Shown: piece by piece, positions 375-60,993 of the stretch
Position numbering within the stretch: the first letter of the stretch is position 1
Layout: every line of letters starts with the position of its first letter
Origin: Nitrospinae bacterium CG11_big_fil_rev_8_21_14_0_20_45_15
GTDB lineage: Bacteria; Nitrospinota; Nitrospinia; Nitrospinales; VA-1
Assembly: GCA_002787235.1 (NCBI GenBank)
Contig: PCWG01000041.1
Coordinates: 11,713-75,712, forward strand
Length of the DNA stretch: 64,000 nucleotides
Direction: 5' to 3'
Position numbers and translations under genes: made by a program
Notes under the pieces: model-generated
What the model saw: only the letters and a program-made list of their open reading frames with translations
Told to the model about the DNA's origin: nothing
The model's database searches: none

Positions 375-1079
375 TTGAAAACTCAGGATAGGAAATCAGA
401 AATAATCCGGCCCGGAGATAGCGAAGGCGAAAAGGGTTTCAGTATGGTTGAGTTGCTCATCTCCATCGCATTATTCGGGGCAGGTGTCTTGGCCTATGGT
501 GGGATGACGGGCACTATCATCGGATTGGATAAAAGAAGCAAGATGGAAAGTATAGCGGTCACTCTTGCGCAAGATAAGATTGAGTATTTTAAGAACGTTG
601 CGCGTTCCAGTGAACTGCCATCCGATGGCAGTTTGACCAATCCCGCATTGTCGGGAGGGGTTTGGGATTCTTCGGGAGATGAAGTCGTGGATGAGTTGGG
701 TGCGACTGGAGGCTCGGATGCTCGTTACACAAGAACCTGGACGATCGAGCCTGTGGCGAATGCTAACCATCTCTACGATGTGGGTGTGAGTGTTGCCTGG
801 GTGGATAAAAGTTCACGAACTGAGACTTTGCATACTTTGATCAATCAGGATGTCGGCGTTGCCGTGGTGTCTGTTGCCGAACAAGCTGAAGACGATTCTG
901 CCAAAGACAAGGACAAGGACAGCGATTCTGCCAAAGATAAGGACAAGGACAGTGACTCTGCCAAAGATAAGGACAAGGACAGTGACTCTGCCAAAGATAA
1001 GGACAAGGACAGTGACAGCGGCGATAAAGACAAAGACAGTGACGCTTCTGCGAAGGATAAAGATAAGGACAGTGATTAA
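375..1079 (+). CDS. Prepilin-type N-terminal cleavage/methylation protein, PilV-like minor pilin (copy 1) with a C-terminal Lys/Asp repeat tail
   Basis: TTG start 7 nt after GGAGAA. Class III signal ...GEKG|FSMVELLISIALFG with Glu at +5 followed by a hydrophobic helix. The paralog at 3955 shares TLAQDKIE/LAQDKLE and RYTRTW/HFTRTW. Confidence 0.7.
   Translation: MKTQDRKSEIIRPGDSEGEKGFSMVELLISIALFGAGVLAYGGMTGTIIGLDKRSKMESIAVTLAQDKIEYFKNVARSSELPSDGSLTNPALSGGVWDSSGDEVVDELGATGGSDARYTRTWTIEPVANANHLYDVGVSVAWVDKSSRTETLHTLINQDVGVAVVSVAEQAEDDSAKDKDKDSDSAKDKDKDSDSAKDKDKDSDSAKDKDKDSDSGDKDKDSDASAKDKDKDSD
891..1076. repeat. In-frame 30-bp tandem repeat (about 4 near-identical units plus degenerate units) encoding (DSAKDKDKDS)n
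   Basis: gattctgccaaagayaaggacaaggacagy is repeated head to tail from 894. The last units are more diverged. Confidence 0.9.
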
Positions 1080-1218: not shown

Positions 1219-2007
1219 GTGAATATTCTAAAAAAAATAAAAAGAAACGAGCAGGACGGTGTGACTCTTGCGGAAATTTTGATAGGCATGGCGATCAGTT
1301 CGGCTTTGCTTATTGCGGTATTTAAGATTTTTATTCAGCAACAGAGTGCTTTCGAGAATTTAAACGACAGCACACTGATTCGGGCAAAAGGACGCTTGGC
1401 GATCAAGCTTCTGTCCAAAGAAATCAGGATGGCAGGGCATGGAATGCCCAAAAACTCAGGGATCGTTGCATTTGATTCCACTTCGATCACCTTTTATGTT
1501 GGCGGCGTATCGACGACGACCCCTCCAGGGTCTGCTGGAACCAAAGCGGTTGCAAGTGAGGATACGACGCTCAATGTGGTGAACGCAACGGGTTTTAGCG
1601 ATGGCAACAATGTGGTCATTCATGATCCGGCTTTGGGGACCACAGAGTTTGTTGAAATTGAAGGCACTCCTGAAACTGAAAGCAACCCCAATACCATTCC
1701 TCTGAAAGAGGCCGTGGTTCAGGATTTTATTTATGGCGTCAATTCCAATCTCGTGACAGTGACGGCATACAACACGGTGAAAATTTATCTCAATGACAAG
1801 AATGTTGTCAAAACGGTGGACGGTCAAGAGGTGACCGTTATTCAAGATGTTTCTTCTGGGGATGGTTTGTCATTTGACTTTTACGGCGCGGTTGAAACTT
1901 CCGCAATCGAAAAAGTTGGAATCACCATGAAGTTGATCGATCCTACTAATACCAGGGCAACCATTAATTTGAAATCAGACATAACTTTGAGGAATCAGCA
2001 GTCATGA
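1219..2007 (+). CDS. Prepilin-type protein, PilW-like minor pilin (copy 1)
   Basis: GTG start after GGGGAAA. N-terminus ...DG|VTLAEILIGMAISSALLIAVF with Glu at +5. The paralog at 4467 shares RAKGR..K.LSKE..MAG.G.P and TTPPG/STPPG. Confidence 0.65.
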   Translation: MNILKKIKRNEQDGVTLAEILIGMAISSALLIAVFKIFIQQQSAFENLNDSTLIRAKGRLAIKLLSKEIRMAGHGMPKNSGIVAFDSTSITFYVGGVSTTTPPGSAGTKAVASEDTTLNVVNATGFSDGNNVVIHDPALGTTEFVEIEGTPETESNPNTIPLKEAVVQDFIYGVNSNLVTVTAYNTVKIYLNDKNVVKTVDGQEVTVIQDVSSGDGLSFDFYGAVETSAIEKVGITMKLIDPTNTRATINLKSDITLRNQQS

Positions 2008-3737
2008 AAAAACTCAAAACGAGCTATATGCAATATGCAAAAAAAATGAGGGTTTCTCTAGAGTCGAATTTTTCTGGAGAGCAGGGGGTTGCCCTGATCA
2101 CAACGATGCTTTTCAGCTTTATCCTTGCCGCATTGGCATTGGTTGCCGTCAATTGGTCGACCACCGATAGAACGCGTTCGGCGCAATATATCAAGTCCCG
2201 TTCTGCTTTTTATATCGCCGAAGCGGGAATACAGAAGTCTCTGAATTACCTCAACTACGACGCAAATGGCAATGTGCCGGGCGATGCGGGAGAGGGCTTC
2301 ACCAGTGTGCTGACCAATTTCTTGACAACGCATTCGGCGGATTTGACCGATGTTTCTTATGCGAATGGAACTTTCAATGTCAGCGTGAGCGACAATGATG
2401 ACAATGACAGCGATGGCACGACGGATGTTGACAATACCATCGAGTTGGTTTCCAAAGGAACGAAGGGTAGTACAGAGGTTTCTGTTCGTGCGGTCATACA
2501 TCGCGCTTTGTACAGCCCGGAACACGCCATCGCAACCGAAAGCGCGTTGACCTTTACAGGCAACACCTCCGTCGATGGGACCAAAGGGAGTGTTCATGCC
2601 AATGGCTCCATTACAGGATCTTCCAATGATGTTTCACAAGGGATCACTTCGGCAGACTCCTGCGATTCGCCTTGTACCGTCGTTGGTGCAGAAAACTTTC
2701 CTCAAATCAAGCAGTCAACTTTGGGATCGTACGCAGATTATAACCTCAAAAGTGATGGAACGATCACCAATGCCGAGGGCACGACTTTGGTTCCCGACGA
2801 CAATAATCTGAGCAATCTGGCATATGCAAACACGGCCGATTACGAAGGCTGGCTGGCCTGGGATACCAATGCAGAAGGGCTTTATTATGTGGATGGCAAC
2901 ATCAAGTTCATTGATGCGAGTGTTAAGGATGATGGCTCTTGCTCTAGTGGCAAAGTGCTGATCTGCCATTTGCCCCCGGGAAATCCGGAAAATCAGATTC
3001 AAAAGTGTTTGCCACAACCCGCTGTAGCGGCTCATCTGGCTCATGGTGATACTGAGGGCTTGTGTGGGGATGCTGTCGCATCCGCAGATGGAGATAAGGA
3101 CAAAGACAGTGACAGTGGTGACAAAGATAAGGACAGCGACTCTGCCAAAGATAAAGATAAGGACAAAGACAGTGACAGCGCAAGCCTTCTGCTGGATCTT
3201 TTGTTGCCGAATGTCGCACTGGCCGCAGATAGTGATAAAGACAAAGACAGTGACTCTGCCAAAGATAAAGACAAGGACGGCGACAAAGATAAAGATAAGG
3301 ATAAGGATAAGGATAAGGACAAGGACGGCGACAAGGACAAGGATAAAGACAAAGATAAGGACAGTGATAAGGACGCGTGGAAGGTGTCTGTCATTGCCGA
3401 AGGCAATATCCTGGTCGAAGGAACTCAGAATCTCTTGGACTACAAGAAGAGTTCTCGCTCGGCAGATATCCAGAACCTGTTTTTTCTAGCGGGGGGCGAT
3501 ATCAATATGGAAGGAACCCTTTCGAATACAATCGAGGGGATCATTGCCGCCAAGGAGCAAATCAACATGGCGGGTAAAATGACACTCAAGGGTTATATCA
3601 TTGCAACGAGTGAAACGAATGACAGCTCGGTTGTCACAAGCAACTCGATTTCTAAAGACTTGACGGTTACCTTTCAGGGTTACGGCAATCCGTTCTTAAC
3701 CAAGACGGTGGAAGTGCTTTCCTGGAAGGAATTGTAA
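2004..3737 (+). CDS. PilX/GspK-like large minor pilin (copy 1) with a solenoid-like C-terminal region, a Cys-rich module and KD repeats
   Basis: ATGA overlap with the upstream gene. ...GEQG|VALITTMLFSFILAALALVAV lacks Glu at +5 and is followed by AFYIAEAGIQKSLNYLNYD (PilX_N-like). An internal start at 2046 is possible. Confidence 0.6.
   Translation: MKKLKTSYMQYAKKMRVSLESNFSGEQGVALITTMLFSFILAALALVAVNWSTTDRTRSAQYIKSRSAFYIAEAGIQKSLNYLNYDANGNVPGDAGEGFTSVLTNFLTTHSADLTDVSYANGTFNVSVSDNDDNDSDGTTDVDNTIELVSKGTKGSTEVSVRAVIHRALYSPEHAIATESALTFTGNTSVDGTKGSVHANGSITGSSNDVSQGITSADSCDSPCTVVGAENFPQIKQSTLGSYADYNLKSDGTITNAEGTTLVPDDNNLSNLAYANTADYEGWLAWDTNAEGLYYVDGNIKFIDASVKDDGSCSSGKVLICHLPPGNPENQIQKCLPQPAVAAHLAHGDTEGLCGDAVASADGDKDKDSDSGDKDKDSDSAKDKDKDKDSDSASLLLDLLLPNVALAADSDKDKDSDSAKDKDKDGDKDKDKDKDKDKDKDGDKDKDKDKDKDSDKDAWKVSVIAEGNILVEGTQNLLDYKKSSRSADIQNLFFLAGGDINMEGTLSNTIEGIIAAKEQINMAGKMTLKGYIIATSETNDSSVVTSNSISKDLTVTFQGYGNPFLTKTVEVLSWKEL
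3087..3374. repeat. Hexanucleotide-periodic GAY-AAR (Asp-Lys) repeat tracts inside PilX-like copy 1, related at DNA level to 891-1076
   Basis: Runs of gataaggacaaagac, including gacagtgactctgccaaagataa shared with the 891-1076 repeat. They are interrupted by a hydrophobic SLLLDLLLPNVALAA segment. Confidence 0.85.
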
Positions 3738-3775: not shown

Positions 3776-3805
3776 AAACGGGGGGAGTTTCTCCCCCCGT
3801 TTTTG
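3776..3805 (+). terminator. Rho-independent terminator ending the first triad
   Basis: aaaacgggggag-ttt-ctccccccgtttt: a GC-rich perfect stem followed by a T run, 39 nt after the 3737 stop. A weaker AT-rich hairpin lies at 3737-3763. Confidence 0.8.
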
Positions 3806-3954
3806 GGGATTGAATAAAAAACCTTCTATCTCTGTAAATGTAAAAACAGGTAGTTTCACTTCACTTGTTTCCCCACTGTTTACCCCGTTATTCTTTGTGT
3901 GTTTGTGCGGTTATGCCGTTTCTCAAAAATAGCAGCTTCTATCCAGAGAGAATA

Positions 3955-4470
3955 ATGACTTTGCTGAATTATAATTTCATCCGAAAGGCACATCCCTTGA
4001 AAAAAGTGACAGCGGGCGATTTTGAAAGCAAAAACAGCCTGGGGGCTCAGGAGAGTGGTTTTACATTGGTCGAGATCCTGGTGGCGGTCGTGATACTTGC
4101 GATCGGTTTGTTTTTATTTCTCTCCACATCAGGTTCCATCATGACTAGAAATCAAAAGAGCAGTAATGAAACGATTGCCACTACGTTGGCTCAGGACAAA
4201 TTGGAGCTCATACAAAATACAGCCTTGACCGTATCTTTATCAGGCGCGGATGGATTGGCATCGCCATCCTATTCATCGGGGTGGACCGCGAATGCGAGCG
4301 GAGAGACCATTGACGCCTCTGGAAATACGGGAACTCCGGGTGCTCACTTCACTCGAACCTGGTCGATTGCAGCAGATGGAACCTTGTTTTTTTATTATCT
4401 GGTGACCGTTACGGTGACATGGAACAACGGTGCAAATTCTGTTGTGCTGACCACACAAATTTCACAATGA
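3955..4470 (+). CDS. PilV-like minor pilin (copy 2)
   Basis: ...QESG|FTLVEILVAVVILAIGLF prepilin signal with Glu at +5. I prefer ATG 3955 over the 3865 ORF start because the extra N-terminus looks non-coding. Paralog of 375-1079 without the KD tail. Confidence 0.7.
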   Translation: MTLLNYNFIRKAHPLKKVTAGDFESKNSLGAQESGFTLVEILVAVVILAIGLFLFLSTSGSIMTRNQKSSNETIATTLAQDKLELIQNTALTVSLSGADGLASPSYSSGWTANASGETIDASGNTGTPGAHFTRTWSIAADGTLFFYYLVTVTVTWNNGANSVVLTTQISQ

Positions 4471-5267
4471 GCAAGGACGGCAAAATGCCGAATGAAAAAA
4501 TGTTGAATCATCCCCCAAAAAAGTTTCTTGACGAGCGTGGATTCACCATCGTGGAGATGCTGATTGCTTCTCTGATCGGGGTGATTGTTTTGGGCGCGAC
4601 CATTTACATTTTTACGTTACAGGAAGATGTCTTGAATTCGGAGAATTCCTCCACCGATATTCGGGCAAAGGGCAGACATGCCATGAAGGTTCTGTCCAAA
4701 GAGTTGAAGATGGCGGGGTTTGGTTTGCCCACGAAGGAAAGTGTTACCGCGATCAGTTCAACCTCCATCAGTTATCGAGTCAACAATGACGATGTTCGCA
4801 CCAGCACTCCACCGGGAGCTTCGGGAACGACAATCACCACTGCGGGAGATACGGTCATTACGGTCGTAAATGGATCTGTTTTTACAGATGGTGATAAAAT
4901 TGTCATCTACAATCCAAGTTTTGGGCGGGCGGAATACAATATTGTTGATGGCACACCGACAACGACCAGTATTCCTTTAGATACCGCGTTGATAAACGGT
5001 TACGTAGCCAGTGCCAATGCAAAACTGGTAACGATCAACAAGTACAACGATGTGACCCTTGGCCTATCGGGAACCACTATCACAAAAACCGTGGACAGTG
5101 GATCGCCGGTTACTCTGGTGGGTGAAGTGTCCAATCTGTCCTTCGATTTTTATGGGGTCACCGAGACCTCACTTGTGAAGAGGGTTGGCGTCACGATCAA
5201 CATGCAGGATTCTAACGATTCTAGTATTACCTTCGATTATAAATCTGACGTCATTCTGAGAAATTAA
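4467..5267 (+). CDS. PilW-like minor pilin (copy 2)
   Basis: The ATG at 4467 overlaps the upstream stop (ATGA). ...DERG|FTIVEMLIASLIGVIVLG with Glu at +5. Collinear similarity to 1219-2007. Confidence 0.65.
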   Translation: MSKDGKMPNEKMLNHPPKKFLDERGFTIVEMLIASLIGVIVLGATIYIFTLQEDVLNSENSSTDIRAKGRHAMKVLSKELKMAGFGLPTKESVTAISSTSISYRVNNDDVRTSTPPGASGTTITTAGDTVITVVNGSVFTDGDKIVIYNPSFGRAEYNIVDGTPTTTSIPLDTALINGYVASANAKLVTINKYNDVTLGLSGTTITKTVDSGSPVTLVGEVSNLSFDFYGVTETSLVKRVGVTINMQDSNDSSITFDYKSDVILRN

Positions 5268-5275
5268 AGAGGTCT

Positions 5276-6613
5276 ATGATGATGACTTTTAAAAATTGGC
5301 TTCGAGAAGAAGGTATGCGGCTTAGAGGTTATTTCTCCAGACAAGAAGGGGTTGCGTTGACGACCGCTCTGATTTTATTGGTCGTGTTATCTGCTCTGGC
5401 CTTTGTTTCTGTTCGGTGGACGGCGCAAGACATTCCTCGCACCAAAAATTTTACCAAAACACGCCAGGCCGCCTATATTGCTGAAGCGGGATTTCATCGA
5501 GCGGTCAATTATTTTAATTACGATGCGACCGGGAAAAGTCCGGGAGAATTGAGCAACGGATTCACTGACGAAATCAATGGTAGCAACTGGCCATCGGGGA
5601 CGTTTACAAACATTGCCATGGGTGCAGGGACATACACGGTTACAATTGTCGATAATTCTGACGATGGCGATCAAACGACCGATAGTGACAATGCCGTGAT
5701 TCTGACTTCAACGGGAACCGTCGGAGGGGTGGAGGTCAAGGTGGAAGGAACATTGGTCCGCGCCTTGTATCAGGCTCAGCATGCCCTTGCTACTGATGGC
5801 GATTTGCTTGTCTCCGGGAATCCGACAATAACCGGAAGCAATGGAAGCGTTCATTCCAACAGTGATTTGAGTCTTACCGGGAATCCATCGGTCAGTTCGA
5901 CCGCAACCGCATCGGGAACATTTACCGCGACCGGAAGCCCCTCAGTTGGAGGTGGCACCGCGAGTGGAGCTACGACGGAGGGTATTCCTGTCGTGAACAT
6001 CTCAGATTATAAAAGTACTTCTCAATATGTATTGGGAGCCGACGGTATCGTACGCAACGGAGGCGGGACATTCATCCACGACACCAGTGTCAGTGGAAAT
6101 TTCAGGACCTCTGGCAATGCAAATAAAGGTTGGGGCTACAGTGCGGGGCCGCCCGTCGTTTGGGATTTAGGAGATGATGAAGCATTTGAAGGGACTTATT
6201 ATGTTGAAGGCAGTGCTGAGATGAGTAACAGTGGTTCTTCCGCACATCCATTCGATGTTACCGTCATTGCGGAAGGTCATATTACAGTAGGGGGAAATGC
6301 CACCTTGAGAAATAAGAAGCTGGCCTCCGACCCCGAAGAAGTTCAGAATATTTTCCTGATGGCAGGAACCGATATCGATTTGCAGGGAAATATCAGTAAC
6401 TCCGTACAAGGGATGATTTACGCTGGAGAGCAAATCGAGATATCGGGCAATCCCACCATCAATGGATTTGTTCTCGCCGCAGATTCTGCCGCGTCAGACA
6501 GTGAAGTGACGGCGAACAAGGTGAATGGAAATCCCACGATCACCTACAATGGAGGTTCTGTTTCGCCATTTTTCAGCAACAAAGTCACCGTGACCTCCTG
6601 GCAAGAGTTGTAG
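5276..6613 (+). CDS. PilX/GspK-like large minor pilin (copy 2), solenoid-like C-terminal region
   Basis: ...RQEG|VALTTALILLVVLSALAFVSV (no Glu at +5) followed by AAYIAEAGFHRAVNYFNYD. The C-terminus VTVTSWQEL matches VEVLSWKEL of copy 1. Confidence 0.6.
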   Translation: MMMTFKNWLREEGMRLRGYFSRQEGVALTTALILLVVLSALAFVSVRWTAQDIPRTKNFTKTRQAAYIAEAGFHRAVNYFNYDATGKSPGELSNGFTDEINGSNWPSGTFTNIAMGAGTYTVTIVDNSDDGDQTTDSDNAVILTSTGTVGGVEVKVEGTLVRALYQAQHALATDGDLLVSGNPTITGSNGSVHSNSDLSLTGNPSVSSTATASGTFTATGSPSVGGGTASGATTEGIPVVNISDYKSTSQYVLGADGIVRNGGGTFIHDTSVSGNFRTSGNANKGWGYSAGPPVVWDLGDDEAFEGTYYVEGSAEMSNSGSSAHPFDVTVIAEGHITVGGNATLRNKKLASDPEEVQNIFLMAGTDIDLQGNISNSVQGMIYAGEQIEISGNPTINGFVLAADSAASDSEVTANKVNGNPTITYNGGSVSPFFSNKVTVTSWQEL

Positions 6614-6819: not shown

Positions 6820-8265
6820 ATGCCATTTGAAGGGTCAGCAAAAATTATAATTGACCAAAGACCGCTTTGGATCGTGATACTCGACCGCTCGCGCCGGGCG
6901 TTGTTTCTGCTTCTGTTCTTTTCTTTATTTGCGTTTTTTCTCAGTCTGGATGGCCCCGACGATCTCTCCCTCGAAGGCTACAGAACCCTTTGTCTGTTTG
7001 GATTGTGTGTCTGTTTGTGGGCGACCAATTTGATTCCCCTTTCGATCACCAGTTTTCTGGTCATTGGAGCCGTTCCCATGCTGGGGATCATGGATTCCGC
7101 GCAGGCCTATTCCTTTTTTGGCAACAAAGCCGTATTTTTCATATTGGGAGCCTTCATCCTTTCGGCGGCGATGATCGCCAGCGGCTTGAGCTCTCGACTT
7201 TCCATGTGGTTTTTAGGGAAATGGGGAGACAGTCCCGTCCGTCTGATCAGTGGCATTTATTTTTTCTCAGCAGTCAGTTCCTGTTTCATGTCCGAGCATG
7301 CCGTTGCGGCGATGTTATTTCCGTTGGTGATGGAGCTGGTCGTTATTTTGAAACTCGAGCGTGGCAAGTCACAACTTGGGAAATCGTTGTTTTTTGCGCT
7401 CGGTTGGGGGTGCATCATCGGAGGTTCCATGACGGTTATGGGCGGAGCCCGTGTCCCTCTTGCGATCGAAATCCTTGAAAAAATCACTCAGGGAGCCCAT
7501 ACAGTTGGATTCGTGCAATACACGACTCTGAGTTTTCCCTTAGTGCTTATTCTTCTCGCAACGGGTTGGTTCACCTTGATTTTTATGTTCACACCGGAAA
7601 AAGTGGACACAGAGCCTGTATGTAAAATGTTGCGAGAAAAGTATGAAGAACTTGGCGGATTGAAATTTCGCGAAAAAGGCGTTGCTTTGGTGATGGTGAC
7701 CACGATATGCGCCTGGTTTGTTTATGGCGATGATGTGGGTATCGCAAACATAGCAATCATTGCAACGGTTGTGCTGTTCACCTTGAACCTGATCAATTGG
7801 AAAATGGTGGAAGAACACGTCAACTGGGCGATCATTTTGATGTATGGCGGGGCGATTTGTCTGGGAGAGGTGATGGCAAGCACGGGCGCGGCCCATTGGC
7901 TGGCGCAAAAGTGTTTTGATGGAGTGGTTGAATCTTCAGGAATGTTTTTAATCGTTTTAGCATTGCTCTCGACGATTTTCACCACCTTCATGAGCAATTC
8001 AGCCGTTATTGCCGTGTTGTTGCCGCCCGCAGTCACTCTTTGCGACAGTTACGGCATCAGCCCCGCACTGGCGACGATGGCCATCGTGATCCCGAGTAAT
8101 TTTGCGTTCATCCTTCCCATTGCGACACCGGCTTCTGCCCTGGCCTATTCTTCACGGTTCATCCCCTTGGGAGACATGATGAAATCGGGGCTACTGCTCA
8201 GCTTCATGGGGATGCTGGCCTTTTACTTTCTGCTATTGATTTACTGGCCCCTGTTCGGATTTTAA
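6820..8265 (+). CDS. SLC13/DASS-family anion (di/tricarboxylate or sulfate):cation symporter
   Basis: 481-aa polytopic membrane protein. The two-halves architecture and WATNLIPLSITSFLVIG / SNSAVIAVLLP motifs are typical of the ArsB/NhaD-SLC13 permease superfamily. Confidence 0.65.
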   Translation: MPFEGSAKIIIDQRPLWIVILDRSRRALFLLLFFSLFAFFLSLDGPDDLSLEGYRTLCLFGLCVCLWATNLIPLSITSFLVIGAVPMLGIMDSAQAYSFFGNKAVFFILGAFILSAAMIASGLSSRLSMWFLGKWGDSPVRLISGIYFFSAVSSCFMSEHAVAAMLFPLVMELVVILKLERGKSQLGKSLFFALGWGCIIGGSMTVMGGARVPLAIEILEKITQGAHTVGFVQYTTLSFPLVLILLATGWFTLIFMFTPEKVDTEPVCKMLREKYEELGGLKFREKGVALVMVTTICAWFVYGDDVGIANIAIIATVVLFTLNLINWKMVEEHVNWAIILMYGGAICLGEVMASTGAAHWLAQKCFDGVVESSGMFLIVLALLSTIFTTFMSNSAVIAVLLPPAVTLCDSYGISPALATMAIVIPSNFAFILPIATPASALAYSSRFIPLGDMMKSGLLLSFMGMLAFYFLLLIYWPLFGF

Positions 8266-8287
8266 CAGCTCAAAAGACAGAAGGCGG

Positions 8288-9409
<1,122 letters not shown>

Positions 9410-11677: not shown

Positions 11678-12454
11678 TTGAATCGGATAGATAGTTTGAA
11701 CTCCAGAGATCAAAAAATACCCAAGGGTTTCTCGAATGTGTGGAACTTTTTTTGGGATAGCCTGTTTCCACAATTGTGCATTTATTGCGAAGGGGAGCGG
11801 ATCAATGGTGGGAATTTTCTTTGCGGTGATTGCCGGGAGGCCATTCAATTTTTAAAGGAGGCTCTTTGTCACACCTGCGGTGCTCCGGCGGATATCTCCT
11901 ATGATTTCCCGCGTGAGGACTTCCAGTGCGGGCTTTGCCGAAAAAAACCTTTTGCCTTCGATCGAGCCAGATCTCAGGGACGTTATGATACGGTTCTTAA
12001 GGAATTGATTCATTTTTTTAAATACCGGCCGCAACGCGGTGCGGTTTCTGAAATCAAATTCTTGCTGGAGCAATTTTTCCCTTACGAGAAGGAAGATCTC
12101 AAGGGTTTCTGGGTCCTGCCCATCCCGCTCTTCAAAAATAAATTACAGGAAAGACAATTTGATCAAGCGCACTTGATTGCAAGTTTGGTTGCGAAACAAT
12201 TCAGTCTGCCGATGGGACAGGAGTGGCTCGTCAAGATCAGGGATACGGCACCGCAAGCAAAAAAAAATAAAACGGAGCGGGTCAGAAACATGCGCGGTGC
12301 TTTTTCCGCCGCGAATAGAGAAATACTGGCAGGCAAGGACCTCCTCCTGGTAGACGATGTGTTCACTACAGGGGCGACGGTGAGCGAGGCTTCAAAAGTT
12401 TTAAAGCGGTCGAATTGCGGGCGGATTTATATTTTTACTCTGGCGCGTGCGTGA
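11678..12454 (+). CDS. comF: ComF-family protein (phosphoribosyltransferase-like, competence-associated)
   Basis: N-terminal CxxC...CxxC (CIYCEG...CGDC, CHTCG...CGLC) and the C-terminal PRTase motif LLVDDVFTTGATVSEA. The start is uncertain, with an in-frame GTG at 11738. Confidence 0.75.
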   Translation: MNRIDSLNSRDQKIPKGFSNVWNFFWDSLFPQLCIYCEGERINGGNFLCGDCREAIQFLKEALCHTCGAPADISYDFPREDFQCGLCRKKPFAFDRARSQGRYDTVLKELIHFFKYRPQRGAVSEIKFLLEQFFPYEKEDLKGFWVLPIPLFKNKLQERQFDQAHLIASLVAKQFSLPMGQEWLVKIRDTAPQAKKNKTERVRNMRGAFSAANREILAGKDLLLVDDVFTTGATVSEASKVLKRSNCGRIYIFTLARA

Positions 12455-12743: not shown

Positions 12744-12800
12744 ATTTTTCAAAGATCTTGATAAAGCTGGCGGCCCTAAGTGTGGGGAGTGCCTCTGCTG

Positions 12801-12822
12801 TCCCGCTCCGGCGGGAATTTTT
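12801..12822 (+). terminator. Terminator-like hairpin plus T run (repeat copy 1), downstream of comF/GIY-YIG
   Basis: tcccgc-tccg-gcggga followed by attttt. Confidence 0.55.
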
Positions 12823-12884
12823 CAAAGAGCATTCAAATGGCTTTGTAAAGCTGGTTTCTCTAAGAATGGGGGCTGGGTCTGCTG

Positions 12885-12906
12885 TCCCGCTCCGGCGGGA
12901 ATTTTT
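12885..12906 (+). terminator. Second identical terminator-like hairpin (repeat copy 2)
   Basis: Same tcccgc-tccg-gcggga plus attttt, 84 bp downstream of the first. Confidence 0.45.
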
Positions 12907-13003
12907 CAAAGAGCATTCAAATGGCTTTGTAAAGCTGGTTTCTCTAAGTATGATGGGGCTGGGTCTGCTGTCCCGCGTCATTCACTCCCGCTTGGCGGGC
13001 GGA

Positions 13004-24423: not shown

Positions 24424-25497
24424 CTACGGAATAGTGTCGTAAATACCGTAAGTACTAAGGAAATACCCGCCGGTGACGGTACTGCAATTATCTCTGGCAA
24501 GATTGCGAAATCCGCCGGTGACGCTACTGTAGTTAGCCGAAGCAGTATTGTAATTTCCGCCGCTGACGCTACTGCTATAAGCCGAAGCAGTATTGCCCAT
24601 CCCGCCGAGGATGCTACTGTATGAACCTGTGGCAGTATTGCCACCTCCGCCATTGATGGCACTTCCGATAACGTAGGCAGTATTGCTAAACCCGCCGGTG
24701 ACGCTACTGGATTGACCTGAGGCATTATTGCGAAACCCGCCGCTGACGCTACTGTATTGACCTGAGGCATTATTGCGAAACCCGCCGCTGACGCTACCGT
24801 CAGAACCCCAAGCAAAATTTCCATTTCCGCCGCTGATGCTGGAGTAAAGTCCTGATGCCTGATTGAATCTTCCACCAGTGACCGAAGCATAAGCATTGCT
24901 GGATTCATTGTCCAAGCCGGCGACAATGGCTCCGTAGCTGGAATAATTGGCACCTCTTCCGACGATCAGGTTATGCGAGCCAGTCTTGTTGCTAGTCAAA
25001 TAACTACTGACCTCGTTGTAACCGACGATCAGGTTGCCCAGTCCGTTGACGGCACCATCTGTATCACCGGAACCATTTACTATCTGCATGTTCATACCCG
25101 TGAACCTGAGATCGTCTCCCGTTCTCGTGACACCGCTGAAACGGGTTTGCAGTTCAGAGATATCCGCATTTACCTGAGTGAGATCGGAACTTCCGTCCGC
25201 ACCCGCAGGACCCTGTGGACCTACAGGACCGGCAGGGCCTTGTGGACCCTGTGGGCCTGGGGTCAATTGTATGTTGTTGATCTGCGCTTGCAAATCCTGA
25301 ATCTGTTGTTGCAGTTGTTCCACTAAATGGCGCAACCCCTTATCGCCGTCGTGATCATCGTCATGACGACCTTCGCTCCTAGATTGGTTTTCATTAGATT
25401 TCGATTTTTCATTACCCGAATCCTTGGCGGCTAAAACAGGCGATGCCGACCACAGGAGACCTGCAATAAGCAATGACATGAACGATAGCGATTTCAT
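24424..25497 (-). CDS. Secreted collagen-like / 14-residue-repeat fibre protein (YadA-head/Hep_Hag-like repeats), with no membrane anchor seen
   Basis: Signal peptide, coiled-coil LVEQLQQQIQDLQAQINNIQ, and seven G-X-Y triplets GPQGPQGPAGPVGPQGPAGADG. These are followed by about 10 repeats of the type SSVSGGFRNNASGQY. Confidence 0.6.
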   Translation of the reverse strand: MKSLSFMSLLIAGLLWSASPVLAAKDSGNEKSKSNENQSRSEGRHDDDHDGDKGLRHLVEQLQQQIQDLQAQINNIQLTPGPQGPQGPAGPVGPQGPAGADGSSDLTQVNADISELQTRFSGVTRTGDDLRFTGMNMQIVNGSGDTDGAVNGLGNLIVGYNEVSSYLTSNKTGSHNLIVGRGANYSSYGAIVAGLDNESSNAYASVTGGRFNQASGLYSSISGGNGNFAWGSDGSVSGGFRNNASGQYSSVSGGFRNNASGQSSSVTGGFSNTAYVIGSAINGGGGNTATGSYSSILGGMGNTASAYSSSVSGGNYNTASANYSSVTGGFRNLARDNCSTVTGGYFLSTYGIYDTIP

Positions 25498-56281: not shown

Positions 56282-57076
56282 TCAATCCTTGGGTTCTGCT
56301 GAATCCGGTGCATCCGATTCGGGTGAGATGGACTCAGGTGAGACGGGCTCCGGTACTGCCCGCTCCGGTGCTATCGGCTCCGGTGCTACCGGTTCTGGTG
56401 AGACCGACCCGGAAGATTCCGATGTCACATTTTCCTGATCCAGAGATTTCGAACCCATTTGCGAGAGGGTCTGGTTCCAGGGCTCGTCGTCACCGACTTC
56501 CTCATCTGCGAATGAAAACAGGGACTGCTGGCTCGATTCTGGCGTTCCATCATTTTCTTCATCCTTAAGGTCTTCCAGAGTTGGCATATCGCTCAAATCT
56601 TTGAGACCGAAGTATTCCAGGAACTTTCGAGTGGTCTGGTACATGATGGGGCGACCGGGAACTTTTTTTCGTCCCGCAGGAGCGATGATTTTTTTTTCGA
56701 GCAAGTTTCGTACAATGCCACTGGAATCGACACCGCGAATGTCTTCCACCTCTTGCCGGGTCAAAGGTTGCTTGTAAGCAATGATGGACAAGGTGTCGAG
56801 ACTGGGTTGAGACAATTTGGTGGTTTTGTCGAGCTTCAGAAAGGTTCTTATCCATTCGGAATATTCATGACGCGTGCTGAGTTGATAACCCTGGGCAACT
56901 TCTATGATTTGCAAATTCCGGGACTGATAATCGCTTTTGAGTTCCTCCAGAATAGAAATCGCCTCTTTTTCCGACACCCCACCGGGCAGGGTTTGTCGTA
57001 ATTGTTCCGGCGTGAGCGGTTGCTCCGCCGCCAACAAAAGGTTTTCTACTATCGCTTTGAGTTCTTCGCGTTCCAC
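56282..57076 (-). CDS. scpB: Segregation and condensation protein B
   Basis: IVENLLLAAEQPLTPEQL and SQPSLDTLSIIAYKQPLTRQEVEDIRGVDS (winged-helix pair). The C-terminal tail has PE-x3 pentapeptide repeats. Confidence 0.85.
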   Translation of the reverse strand: MEREELKAIVENLLLAAEQPLTPEQLRQTLPGGVSEKEAISILEELKSDYQSRNLQIIEVAQGYQLSTRHEYSEWIRTFLKLDKTTKLSQPSLDTLSIIAYKQPLTRQEVEDIRGVDSSGIVRNLLEKKIIAPAGRKKVPGRPIMYQTTRKFLEYFGLKDLSDMPTLEDLKDEENDGTPESSQQSLFSFADEEVGDDEPWNQTLSQMGSKSLDQENVTSESSGSVSPEPVAPEPIAPERAVPEPVSPESISPESDAPDSAEPKD

Positions 57077-58914: not shown

Positions 58915-60993
58915 ATGAAGAAAAACAACCCGCAGGAAAAGACAGCCACTCCAAAATCAAAACCCATAACAAAATTCGTTTCCGCAATAGGCAGTATCAG
59001 CCTGTTAGCCGGAGGCTTGTGGGCCTTGATGTATTTTTCCACCCCCCAAACCCAATTGCGCCCCTACAAAGACGCTTTGACTTTGGCAAAGGCGGAAAAA
59101 ACGGAAAAAGAAGACGTAAAAAAAGAGTCTTCCTCGGAAAATTCACCCCCTTCTCAATCGGAACCAGAATCGAAACCAGAGCCGGAGCCCGAATCGGAAG
59201 CAGAGCAGGAAGCTAAAAATATCTTGAAGGATAAAATCACTCCTCCTCTCGATATCATAAAAGCATCTGTGACCACGGACCCGAATTCCGCACAATTGCC
59301 TCGTGAAACGCTGGAGTATATTCAACGCGGCATTGCCTTGACTGAAAAGGGCGAATACAACGCAGGCTCTCTGGAGTTTGAAAAAGCCGCTGAACTGAGT
59401 CCCAACGCCCCGCAAGTCTATGCCATCTGGGCAACCGCGATGAAAATGGCCAAAAGTTACAAGGGTGCCACCAACCATTTTGCCCGTGCCGCCGAGCTAT
59501 CTGGCAACGATCCTGAAATTCTTTTCAATTGGGCCATGTCCGAACTGGAAGCAAACAACAACAAAGACGCCGGTGATTTATTGGAAAAAGTACTCAAGGT
59601 ACAACCCGATAACTATGTGGCCCTGAACTATCTGGGGAAAGCTTATGGCCGTCAAAAATTATACGATCAAGAAGAACAGGCCTACCGCGACGCTTTGAAA
59701 CTCGAACCCAATTTCGCGCAAGCCTATTTCAATTTGGGTATCGTCCTCAGCATCCGCAAAAAGTTTGAAGAAGCCGCTCCGTTCTTTGAAAAAGCCATTG
59801 CAATGGATCGCTTCTACGAGAAACCCTTCGTTGTTCAAATGCTGACGGCACTCGGACGCTATGTGACACCGGAAGACAAAAAAGCTCCCCTCGTCCCCAG
59901 CAATCAGAAAAAAGACGAAGCCGAAAATAAGGCCGAGGAAAACAAGGTCGAAACCGCCAGTGCCGAAGAACATAAAACGGAAGAAGAAAAAATGGAAGGT
60001 TCCAGTGGCATGAAGGATGGGTCCGGCAAAAAGATCAAAGGAACCACCAACGTCAAAGGAAAAATTCTGATCAACGGGCAACCGGCAGGGCTTGATACCA
60101 TCGTCATTCTGGAAACAAAAAGCAAAATGAAGGTGCGCAAGCAGGAGCAGGAAGCCTTGACCATCAATCAAACGGATTTGAAATTTGTACCGATGCACTC
60201 CGTTGTATCCGTCGGCTCTACCGTCACCTTCAAAAACCTGGATACGGATGTTCATAACATTTACTCCAAATCGCTCAACAATCAATTCAATCTGGGAGCC
60301 ATGGCCTCAGGATCGGTCAAGAGCATCACCCTCGATTCAGCCGGGCCTGTGGTATTGCGATGCAATATGCACAAAAACATGGTTGGCACCGTTTTCGTTG
60401 TGCCCAACGGTTATTACACGACCTCCAATGACAAAGGCGAATACTCTTTTGAAAATATCGACAGCAAAAACTTCATCATGCAAGTCTGGAATCCCAGTCT
60501 CAAGCCCGAAGAAGTGGCCGCAAACTTGAAGAGTGCCGATCTCACCGGCGTTGATCAAACCATCGACTTTGATATCAAATCGAACTCGAAACCCGGTGAT
60601 ATCAACGATCTGGTTGAAGCCACCGACTACAATCTGGTCGTGGACAACATTGAACAAGAGATGTTGCAGGCCATTCAGGATTGGAAAGATGGTAAAAAAT
60701 TTATTTCCAGAAAACGCATGTTGCTGGCCATCACCCAACATTTTGCCGGTGGCGGTTTGAAAGGTGCCATTGCCAAAAGTTTCAGTAAAAAACGAAGCGA
60801 CGGTTTGGAGAAAAAAATGGACGACATCCGTAAAAAAATCTCTGGACTCGCTGGTAGCGAGGGTGTGACCGAGGCCGAGTTGATAAGTGAAGCAAAATTT
60901 GCGGTCTCGCAATTGCGCAACAACGTCAAGGAACTTGAGGCTCGGCTCAATCCCGATTTCGAAAAAGATCAAAATAAATCGGATACAAAATGA
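58915..60993 (+). CDS. Membrane-anchored TPR-repeat protein with cupredoxin-like and carboxypeptidase-regulatory-like beta domains
   Basis: N-terminal TM and an acidic PE-rich linker, followed by several TPR units (AEELSGNDPEILFNWAMS..., ALKLEPNFAQAYFNLGIVL). Then VGSTVTFKNLDTDVHNIYS...LRCNMHKNMVGTVFV, and GEYSFENI. Confidence 0.55.
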   Translation: MKKNNPQEKTATPKSKPITKFVSAIGSISLLAGGLWALMYFSTPQTQLRPYKDALTLAKAEKTEKEDVKKESSSENSPPSQSEPESKPEPEPESEAEQEAKNILKDKITPPLDIIKASVTTDPNSAQLPRETLEYIQRGIALTEKGEYNAGSLEFEKAAELSPNAPQVYAIWATAMKMAKSYKGATNHFARAAELSGNDPEILFNWAMSELEANNNKDAGDLLEKVLKVQPDNYVALNYLGKAYGRQKLYDQEEQAYRDALKLEPNFAQAYFNLGIVLSIRKKFEEAAPFFEKAIAMDRFYEKPFVVQMLTALGRYVTPEDKKAPLVPSNQKKDEAENKAEENKVETASAEEHKTEEEKMEGSSGMKDGSGKKIKGTTNVKGKILINGQPAGLDTIVILETKSKMKVRKQEQEALTINQTDLKFVPMHSVVSVGSTVTFKNLDTDVHNIYSKSLNNQFNLGAMASGSVKSITLDSAGPVVLRCNMHKNMVGTVFVVPNGYYTTSNDKGEYSFENIDSKNFIMQVWNPSLKPEEVAANLKSADLTGVDQTIDFDIKSNSKPGDINDLVEATDYNLVVDNIEQEMLQAIQDWKDGKKFISRKRMLLAITQHFAGGGLKGAIAKSFSKKRSDGLEKKMDDIRKKISGLAGSEGVTEAELISEAKFAVSQLRNNVKELEARLNPDFEKDQNKSDTK

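Follow-up and report, generated by a model that had tools for sequence, protein, structure and literature searches.

A hypervariable solenoid loop with a four-Cys module and Asp-Lys repeats in a predicted ComZ/PilX-type minor pilin of the Nitrospinaceae

Large minor pilins that carry a beta-solenoid have been described before. ComZ of Thermus thermophilus combines a pilin fold with a large beta-solenoid, binds DNA and, as its authors argue, sits at the pilus tip (PMC6561018), and cyanobacterial PilX, encoded in two PilX/PilV sets, bears a solenoid like those of ice-binding proteins (bioRxiv 10.64898/2026.02.12.705559). In the latter paper, the lack of Glu5 is the criterion for the capping subunit of the minor-pilin priming complex. 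Modular type IV pilins are, in addition, known from Streptococcus sanguinis, where PilB bears a vWA and PilC a lectin module (PMC8179133). Here, we analyzed a related gene in a 64,000-nucleotide (nt) stretch of contig PCWG01000041.1 of Nitrospinae bacterium CG11_big_fil_rev_8_21_14_0_20_45_15. This stretch is referred to as the window, and its numbering is used for all coordinates. The gene encodes the first of two PilX-like paralogs (copy 1 and copy 2) and contains an insertion that had been pointed out in an earlier note made from the sequence alone. We hold it to be probable, if by no means assured, that copy 1 is a ComZ/PilX-type tip pilin with a hypervariable solenoid loop that displays a four-Cys module and an Asp-Lys (KD) loop; the functional part of this reading we infer.

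Like ComZ (PDB 6QVI) and cyanobacterial PilX, copy 1 appears to be a terminal minor pilin of large size, into whose pilin fold a beta-solenoid is set, and it is encoded together with PilV/PilW-type minor pilins. The two tandem gene sets of the window parallel the two PilX/PilV sets of cyanobacteria. Sequence identity to ComZ is, however, only about 11%, and the excerpts of the ComZ and cyanobacterial PilX papers report neither a mini-domain with a KD polyampholyte of about 100 amino acids (aa) in a solenoid loop, as seen in copy 1, nor a matching KD tail on PilV, as seen in set 1 of the window. Nothing points to a role of copy 1 in DNA uptake. With the modular pilins (PMC8179133), copy 1 shares the principle that a functional module on a tip-located minor pilin widens pilus binding. 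While the modules of S. sanguinis PilB and PilC are vWA and lectin domains placed at the C-terminal end via a short linker, the module of copy 1 is an unannotated domain of about 45 aa that is nested in a loop of the inserted solenoid, together with a long disordered repeat.

Scaffold and loop insertion

Copy 1 matches the Pfam family PilX_N (PF14341) over aa 27-76 with 27.1 bits (cutoff 25.5, E 4e-6), while copy 2 matches it weakly, with 11.3 bits. The mature N-terminus of copy 1 (...EQG/VALITT) has no Glu5, whereas its PilV-like and PilW-like neighbors do. Taken together, the PilX_N match and the lack of Glu5 give copy 1 the signature of a terminal, capping subunit. When an AlphaFold2 (AF2) model of copy 1, built from 18 sequences, was compared to the PDB with Foldseek, ComZ (6qvi) was ranked first (E 8e-9, prob 1.0), followed by the solenoids of ice-binding proteins. 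Based on the model, this match and the architecture common to ComZ and PilX, copy 1 is, as modeled, a PilX/ComZ-type tip pilin with a beta-solenoid set into the pilin fold. The predicted local distance difference test (pLDDT) values are 80-93 in the solenoid strands and 70-85 in the module but only about 30 for aa 357-455. The insertion falls between predicted solenoid strands 300-302 and 459-465, which agrees with the placement in a loop of a solenoid-bearing, tip-type pilin that the earlier note had suggested.

The borders of the insertion were obtained by aligning the two paralogs with BLASTP. Aa 4-298 of copy 1 align to aa 1-312 of copy 2 (36% identity, E 3e-51), and a second, collinear block joins aa 451-577 to 318-445 (38%, E 2e-25). 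Between GLYYVDG and WKVSVIAEG, copy 1 shows a net gain of about 145 codons, where copy 2 has about 15 residues. The insertion of some 140 codons at 2918-3375 that had been noted by eye was thus essentially right, with BLASTP borders at 2898-3374. The three kinds of element that had been listed for it are all present, in frame and within one intact open reading frame (ORF), in the order 46-aa four-Cys module, KD tract 1, 15-aa hydrophobic motif SLLLDLLLPNVALAA and KD tract 2. Only the start of the module had to be moved: It begins at 2934, as position 2964 is that of the cysteine in its CH pair.

The four-Cys module and its family

The Cys-bracketed pattern CHxPPGNPxN...AHLxHGD..G.C had been tentatively ascribed in the earlier note to secreted proteins of other bacteria, and a database search was proposed. 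This assignment proved correct on a large scale, as the module recurs in thousands of secreted proteins. A 60-aa segment of copy 1 alone retrieved five proteins of 71-92 aa (E to 2.5e-7). Four of the five consist of a signal peptide and one copy of KVTICHxPPGNPxN...HLAHGDxLGxC, and the fifth begins within the signal-peptide region. The E-values of the homologues, from 2.5e-7 to 3.7e-27 in a database of 5.8 billion proteins, lie far beyond chance. A profile of the module matched 8,602 cluster representatives at E<=1e-3 and 3,345 at E<=1e-10, counted at 50% identity among 1.84 billion, and a second profile search listed about 1,000 proteins, mostly of 60-80 aa. The copy 1 module is the first row of the profiles A1 and A3, which retrieve these thousands of members.

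The few named members belong to Tenacibaculum, Lacinutrix, Pseudofulvibacter, Oceanihabitans and Gemmatimonadota, and all are annotated as 'hypothetical', with no Pfam domain. Module copies are found singly in secreted proteins of 70-80 aa, behind a signal peptide, or in arrays of up to 22 matched stretches per protein in giant surface proteins, while copy 1 holds a single copy in a pilin loop. In multi-domain proteins, the partner domains are extracellular, namely, PKD, immunoglobulin (Ig)-like, cadherin-like, DUF4114 and the sorting tail of the type IX secretion system (T9SS). The copy 1 module likewise has a secreted context, since the part of the pilin in which it lies is periplasmic or extracellular.

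From 482 ungapped instances, the motif reads K-[VI]-T-I-C-H-x-P-P-G-N-P-x-N-x-x-T-I-x-[IV]-x3-A-x2-A-H-L-A-H-G-D-x2-G-x-C, with about a dozen positions conserved at 85-100%. The copy 1 module holds all of the invariant columns of alignments A1, A3 and A4, with 33 residues from C321 to C354, and thus shares invariant residues and spacing with the stand-alone and tandem proteins of Tenacibaculum, Lacinutrix and Gemmatimonadota. Exactly two cysteines are present in 626 of the 654 complete instances in fetched proteins. The additional Cys pair of copy 1 nonetheless matches a recurrent four-Cys subtype: A cysteine at +14 is found in 18 of the 482 instances, and all 18 also have a cysteine at -8 to -12, for which the base rate is about 21%. 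This co-occurrence suggests that the extra pair of the subtype, including that of copy 1, may form a second disulfide. When modeled alone from a 123-sequence alignment, the module is predicted with confidence as a beta-beta-alpha mini-fold (pLDDT 88).

No Pfam family covering the module was found for the module, the five stand-alone homologs, ten multi-copy proteins or the 123 members of A4, which were compared at E<=10, and no NCBIfam family covering it was found for the five stand-alone homologs or the whole of copy 1. When PDB sequences were searched with a profile, the sole match was a chance one to a capsid protein (E 1.2), and motif strings such as PPGNP and HLAHGD returned nothing relevant from the searchable literature. 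The module is thus a recurrent secreted domain of about 45 aa that has no family description in the databases or literature searched.

Copy 1 is, moreover, not the only pilin to contain the module. Five proteins of a second pilin-like family (P0026, P0029, P0126, P0140 and P0142, where labels of the type P00xx refer to proteins and L0xx to loci; locus L088:6001-8088) contain two modules each. These proteins have 520-695 aa, a GFTL[IL]E N-terminus, an N_methyl match and Glu5, and appear unrelated to the PilX-like proteins, so that the module has apparently been recruited independently into at least two pilin families. In L088, the gene adjoining the module-bearing pilin also encodes an N_methyl motif. 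P0026 and P0029 additionally bear GKDKDKD tracts and a Cys-rich region. A general association of the module with KD linkers was considered and rejected, as KD-like sequence makes up only 7 of some 490 downstream linkers and this sample is biased, several of the seven having come from a query that holds both features.

History of the loop and its Asp-Lys repeats

Homologs of copy 1 come from Nitrospinaceae and from Nitrospina metagenome-assembled genomes (MAGs), and their loops, compared as the earlier note had proposed, sort into distinct classes. In L002 (Nitrospinaceae bacterium OFTM96), a protein of 620 aa, 77% identical to copy 1, bears the four-Cys module, a longer KD tract 1 made of DKDGDK units, the hydrophobic motif, KD tract 2 and then WKVSVIAEGNILVEG. 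L001 (P0006; 67% identical) has the same module and a short KD tract, beyond which some 105 aa of unrelated sequence with cysteines lead to a stop. The loops of L003 and P0007-P0014, 64-139 aa long, consist of DKDKD(S/T)DSG repeats only. In P0015-P0021, this site is occupied by another Cys-rich element (CDPGLACDPASGTCCGQCDPGPAC...; CDPGLACDPASGTCCGQCDPGPACVADDPNAIPCCG), and in P0022 by a loop of about 400 aa of other sequence. Copy 2, P0023, L004-L009, L011 and the outgroups L012, L013 and L017 have loops of 14-17 residues. From anchor to anchor in alignment A2, loop length is thus 14-17 aa in the copy-2 type and outgroups, as compared to 64-408 aa in the copy-1 type. A scan of metagenomes with the junction peptide gave only two module-level matches and no further orthologs.

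In a neighbor-joining tree built on the N-terminal conserved part, the copy-2-type clade contains only short loops and the copy-1-type clade only expanded ones, the three content classes of which form three subclades. As the copy-2-type paralogs and outgroups are all short-looped, the expansion is derived and is placed at the base of the copy-1 lineage. The earlier note had stated that an ancestral region, present in most orthologs and lost in copy 2, would speak against its reading. An expanded loop is indeed present in every copy-1-type ortholog, but the short loops of the copy-2 type and outgroups show that there was no loss. Since KD loops occur in copy-1-type orthologs that lack the module, the KD repeats probably preceded the module at this site. 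The module itself, found at the same position with four cysteines and 79-87% identity in the window, L001/P0006 and L002, would have been gained once, in their common ancestor. Judged from these sequences, the copy-1 loop is an old, derived, hypervariable and insertion-tolerant site that is not private to copy 1.

Other features of the homologs may also be mentioned. P0021 and P0022 have inserts of 370-410 aa at the loop site. In the KD-only orthologs (P0007-P0014 and L003), a cysteine lies ahead of the loop (W.LNGCS) and a second one at its start (GNVDKC), which suggests that a disulfide clamps the loop base; copy 1 lacks the first of these cysteines. In L001 (ENA ERZ6049595 NODE_1493, 8137-9119), the stretch of about 105 aa after the KD tract is AT-rich and ends at a stop codon at 8459-8461. 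A new ORF from 8463 (ORF2) encodes a genuine signal peptide, DKDKDK repeats (SDKDKDKD...) and a further beta-rich segment, and the contig ends before the C-terminal solenoid part. This arrangement may reflect a split gene, the insertion of a further cassette or faulty assembly. L007 (JAKUUR010000057.1), a contig of 2.7 kb in the bin of Candidatus Thioglobus autotrophicus, encodes a 44%-identical homolog and may be mis-binned.

The KD repeats are not restricted to the loop. The C-terminal 64 or so residues of the PilV-like protein of set 1 (885-1076) form a KD(S/A) repeat tail, with 26 Asp and one Glu against 17 Lys, which contains a 30-nt tandem unit encoding DSDSAKDKDK (Tandem Repeats Finder (TRF): period 30, 4.1 copies, 96% matches). 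The disordered part of the copy 1 loop, about 100 residues, is also net acidic (39 Asp, 26 Lys). According to the earlier note, the two genes share their KD DNA, and the 23-mer GACAGTGACTCTGCCAAAGATAA is indeed found at 948 and 978 in the PilV-like tail and at 3246 in KD tract 2 of copy 1. Furthermore, stretches of 52-62 nt in the tail are 81-85% identical to the copy 1 KD sequence. However, exact matches of 14-25 nt are also found between KD tracts of different genomes, and the sharing of 15-mers fails to separate within-genome from between-genome pairs of tracts. As (GAY-AAR)n tracts give similar matches between genomes, raw DNA identity is poorly informative, and most of it is what such tracts would be expected to show.

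The longest exact match of the PilV tail is, on the other hand, to the second PilX tract of its own genome in the window (23 nt), in L001 (29 nt) and in L002 (26 nt), with a tie at 21 nt in L003. The unit DSDSAKDKDKD occurs three times in the PilV-like tail and twice in the PilX-like insert of the window and is absent from three related loci, while DKDGDKDKD occurs 5 and 10 times across the two genes in L002. In all four genomes examined, the PilV-like partner bears a KD tail. These own-genome matches and genome-specific units fit the gene conversion between KD tracts, or concerted evolution, that had been suggested for the window. We thus consider, with moderate confidence, that the KD tracts, although 2 kb apart, evolve in concert, be it by gene conversion or by shared repeat turnover. 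All KD tandem periods found by TRF are multiples of three, so that slippage alters length and not frame.

With regard to described repeats, the copy 1 insert gave only weak NCBIfam matches of 24-27 bits, to the Ser-Asp (SD)-repeat regions of ClfA, ClfB, SdrC and SdrD. As these scores are far below the cutoffs of 999-2500, the resemblance to such staphylococcal proteins (microbial surface components recognizing adhesive matrix molecules, MSCRAMMs) is compositional. Both are long, in-frame, slippage-prone and Asp-rich dipeptide repeats of a surface protein. MSCRAMMs, however, have a Ser-Asp repeat that serves as a wall-spanning stalk, with LPXTG, while the KD tracts are Asp-Lys repeats in a closed loop or a C-terminal pilin tail. 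An MSCRAMM SD-repeat region was therefore rejected as an identity for the insert, given the sub-threshold scores, the D-K repeat and the lack of LPXTG.

Between KD tracts 1 and 2 lies the hydrophobic motif, preceded by DKDSDSA and with Asp398 and Pro402 in its core, which the earlier note took for a signal-peptide core plus cleavage site. The stretch is there, and its small-x-small (AxA) end is kept (ALA/A in the window, AHA/S in L002 and VEA/S in L001 ORF2). Nonetheless, a Sec-type signal peptide was rejected, as the motif is internal, has 15 residues with Asp and Pro in its core, lacks a basic n-region and is conserved; only the AxA-like end fits. In L002, the motif is found as SASLLDFLLPSVAHA / SLLDFLLPSVAHA, between flanking repeats that differ in unit and length. 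Conservation while the flanks diverged suggests a functional element rather than a relic, which we read as a short linear motif under selection that may serve in docking or processing.

In light of these data, the history proposed in the earlier note must be revised. In that account, the insert is a recent mosaic, with part of another secreted KD-rich gene having been captured, complete with signal peptide and cleavage site, and/or KD DNA having been copied from the PilV-like gene 2 kb upstream. Insertion into a surface loop stands, and so do the observations that the AxA end is followed directly by KD repeats in the window and L002, that L001 ORF2 at the equivalent place opens with a true signal peptide and KD repeats, and that the PilV-like and PilX-like genes have repeat units and a 23-nt exact match in common. 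However, as the full architecture is shared with the 77%-identical L002, the insertion is neither recent nor private to the window. The KD segment need not have been captured from the neighboring gene, as KD loops exist in orthologs with neither module nor hydrophobic motif. Capture of a signal peptide is likewise not demonstrable, since the only parallel, with the L001 ORF2 signal peptide, is an alignment of 39% identity with gaps, too weak for a claim of homology, and since the Asp and Pro in the core, the missing n-region and the conservation of the motif speak for function and not for a relic. We thus consider a recent mosaic unlikely.

Alternatively, the insert might be neutral, with a permissive loop tolerating slippage-prone low-complexity DNA and a mobile mini-domain that entered it by accident, none of which is under selection. 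The large range of loop length (64 to 408 aa) and content among orthologs, the predicted disorder and the differences in KD unit and length between close relatives would all be expected in such a case. Yet all copy-1-type proteins keep an expanded loop, with no reversion to the short form and with the frame always maintained. Furthermore, in three lineages the module has lost none of the residues that are invariant in its family and neither of the paired extra cysteines. The hydrophobic motif is conserved as well, and in four genomes a matching tail is found on the PilV-like partner. Neutrality therefore seems to us distinctly improbable.

Functional interpretation, locus and significance

The proposal that we favor for the tip pilin is as follows. 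Copy 1, lacking Glu5, would be the terminal subunit of a PilV-PilW-PilX-type priming or tip complex, in which one inter-rung loop of the solenoid would have become an insertion-tolerant display site in the copy-1 lineage of the Nitrospinaceae. A single ancestral event would have placed the four-Cys mini-domain at the N-terminal edge of this loop, leaving a remainder of about 100 residues as a disordered, net-acidic Asp-Lys(-Ser/Gly) polyampholyte that is broken by the conserved 15-residue hydrophobic motif. The KD tracts would change in length and unit by in-frame slippage and be partly homogenized with the KD tail of the co-transcribed PilV-like pilin, such that both partners of the tip complex would carry matching tails. 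In the manner of the modular pilins, the module would be a disulfide-stabilized, ligand-binding head shown at the pilus tip, while the KD loop and PilV KD tail may form a hydrated cloud or spacer around it that binds cations or prevents fouling. Considering that the predicted scaffold is of the ComZ/PilX type, that modular pilins provide a precedent and that the module has extracellular contexts and was independently recruited into a second pilin-like family, the module probably binds a ligand at the pilus tip, possibly with a metal site at its invariant His/His/His/Asp.

Several points that weigh against this proposal need to be considered. The AF2 model of copy 1 is of moderate quality only (mean pLDDT 68.5), and the tip location would follow from analogy with ComZ and PilX. 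No solved structure resembling the module was found (PDB sequence profile; Foldseek against the PDB, best E 5.6), and three stand-alone module genes lie in unrelated contexts, next to peptidase M1 and cobalamin genes, with polysaccharide export and in a lasso-peptide-like cluster, so that no specific ligand is indicated. Metal binding is suggested solely by the invariant His, Asp and Cys residues. Since the module lies right against the solenoid, the KD tract forms a closed loop instead of a stalk on which the module would project, which makes the analogy with SD-repeat spacers imperfect. The equivalent gene in L001 is broken by a stop and extra sequence, and the module-plus-KD architecture is thus not stable everywhere. 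Finally, the evidence for concerted evolution comes from four genomes, in only two of which is a genome-specific unit common to both genes.

As to the nature of the module, a more specific alternative is a minimal His-Me-finger (HNH-like, beta-beta-alpha-metal) head that binds DNA or acts as a nuclease, capturing or nicking extracellular DNA. The predicted beta-beta-alpha order, with a His ending strand 1, an Asn in the loop and a His in the helix, is compatible with this. One BFVD 'HNHc domain' was matched (template modeling (TM) score 0.63, root-mean-square deviation 1.4 A over 41 columns), and ComZ, the best structural match of the scaffold, binds DNA, as the ComZ paper states (PMC6561018). 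The BFVD Foldseek match is, however, not significant (E 4.1), and nothing HNH-like is among the PDB matches mentioned above. Moreover, no Pfam HNH family was detected in the 123 members at E<=10, and hhalign comparisons with HNH segments of colicin E9 and SpCas9, using approximate sequences, gave a probability below 1%. In addition, Ig/PKD-type surface proteins carry the module in arrays of as many as 22 copies, which suits a binding or structural repeat better than a nuclease. As only the beta-beta-alpha topology agrees, with no sequence or significant structural support, the HNH identity was rejected other than as a topological lead and is, in our view, very unlikely. A wider speculation is that the module is a new metal-dependent head (His-Me-finger-like or with a zinc or copper site) that is widely displayed on surface proteins and that, on a ComZ-like pilus tip amid matched KD tails, captures extracellular DNA, metal or a mineral or particle surface. 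This version is a long shot.

In the same speculative vein, the hydrophobic/AxA motif might serve for docking or for internal processing. Were it a protease processing site, cleavage would give two free KD tails on a two-chain pilin, to which the small-x-small ends ALA/A, AHA/S and VEA/S would lend themselves. This is, however, a sequence pattern only. With its 14-15 aa, the segment is short, Asp and Pro break it up and acidic residues come before it, such that internal processing is even harder to credit than the nuclease. The chance that the insert is an assembly or annotation artefact, with a chimeric or collapsed repeat region or a pseudogene, is practically negligible, as, although repeats are prone to mis-assembly and the L001 ortholog is interrupted, the frame of ORF 2004-3737 runs unbroken through the 477-nt insert into the conserved C-terminal domain and the same order of elements is found in the independent MAG L002.

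The features of the locus are collected in Table 1. The first 6.6 kb of the window contain two tandem three-gene sets on the + strand, in each of which the two smaller proteins have an N-terminal methylation motif with Glu5. Only set 1 bears KD decorations, on both the PilV-like and the PilX-like protein; in set 2, there is no KD tail and copy 2 has a short loop of 17 aa. The same PilV-PilW-PilX-like gene order is found in L001 and L002, with an ortholog of the 262-aa PilW-like protein at the same place. No FimU/GspH-like or PilY1-like gene adjoins either set in the window, nor is one found upstream in L002.

Table 1 Features of the pilin locus in the window.
Feature	Position	Strand	Description
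PilV-like minor pilin, set 1	375..1079	+	234 aa; G/FSMVE, Glu5; Pfam N_methyl E 7.5e-5
PilW-like minor pilin, set 1	1219..2007	+	262 aa; G/VTLAE, Glu5; Pfam N_methyl E 6e-4
PilX/ComZ-type large minor pilin (predicted), copy 1	2004..3737	+	577 aa; PilX_N helix, no Glu5, beta-solenoid body
Loop insertion, aa 299-457 of copy 1	2898..3374	+	From BLASTP blocks, MAFFT alignment A2, anchor-to-anchor lengths, tree and outgroups
Four-Cys module, aa 311-356	2934..3071	+	Cys 313, 321, 335 and 354; predicted beta-beta-alpha
KD tract 1, aa 362-393, DGDKDKDSDSGDKDKDSDSAKDKDKDKDSDSA	3087..3182	+	Predicted disordered, pLDDT ~30; has repeat units in common with the PilV-like tail
Hydrophobic motif SLLLDLLLPNVALAA, aa 394-408	3183..3227	+	AxA-like end ALA/A; AF2 predicts no structure
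KD tract 2, aa 409-457	3228..3374	+	TRF rows 3237-3374; periods of 6/12/18/24 nt
Terminator-like G+C-rich hairpin and T-run	3780..3797	+	Separates set 1 from set 2
Set 2	3865..6613	+	PilV-like ORF 3865-4470, PilW-like 4419-5267, PilX-like copy 2 5276-6613 (445 aa)

Elsewhere in the window, further repeats were observed. A secreted protein of 357 aa (24424-25497, - strand) has a collagen-like GPQGPQGPAGPVGPQGPAG stretch followed by many S.SGG..N.AS repeats, which derive from 45-nt and 135-nt tandem repeats at 24465-24797, and resembles a fibre- or tail-fibre-like protein. An 84-nt tandem repeat (12794-12976; 2.2 copies, 96% matches) lies just 3' of an ORF for a ComF-like phosphoribosyltransferase (11678-12454), where the surrounding ORFs are short and overlapping. 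Short tandem repeats at 56346-56400 and 59156-59211, with periods of 15 nt and 12/24 nt, all multiples of three, are probably coding low-complexity tracts.

Copy 1 belongs to a known type, the modular tip pilin. What seem to be undescribed are the nested display in a loop, where two tip subunits bear polyampholyte tails that match, and the common secreted mini-domain. With 8,602 clusters and no Pfam or NCBIfam model, the module is a candidate for family curation. The matched KD tails, apparently homogenized by recombination, offer a small natural example of disordered regions that evolve in concert on partners that interact. Nitrospinaceae are the main marine nitrite oxidizers and, to our knowledge, almost nothing is known of their attachment to surfaces. 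In this family, the loop of the PilX/ComZ-type solenoid would have been reused for varied cargo, namely, KD repeats, two Cys-rich modules that are unrelated to each other and domains several hundred residues long. The modular-pilin idea would thus be widened from end-to-end grafting to nested loop display, which suggests a natural site for pilus-tip engineering.

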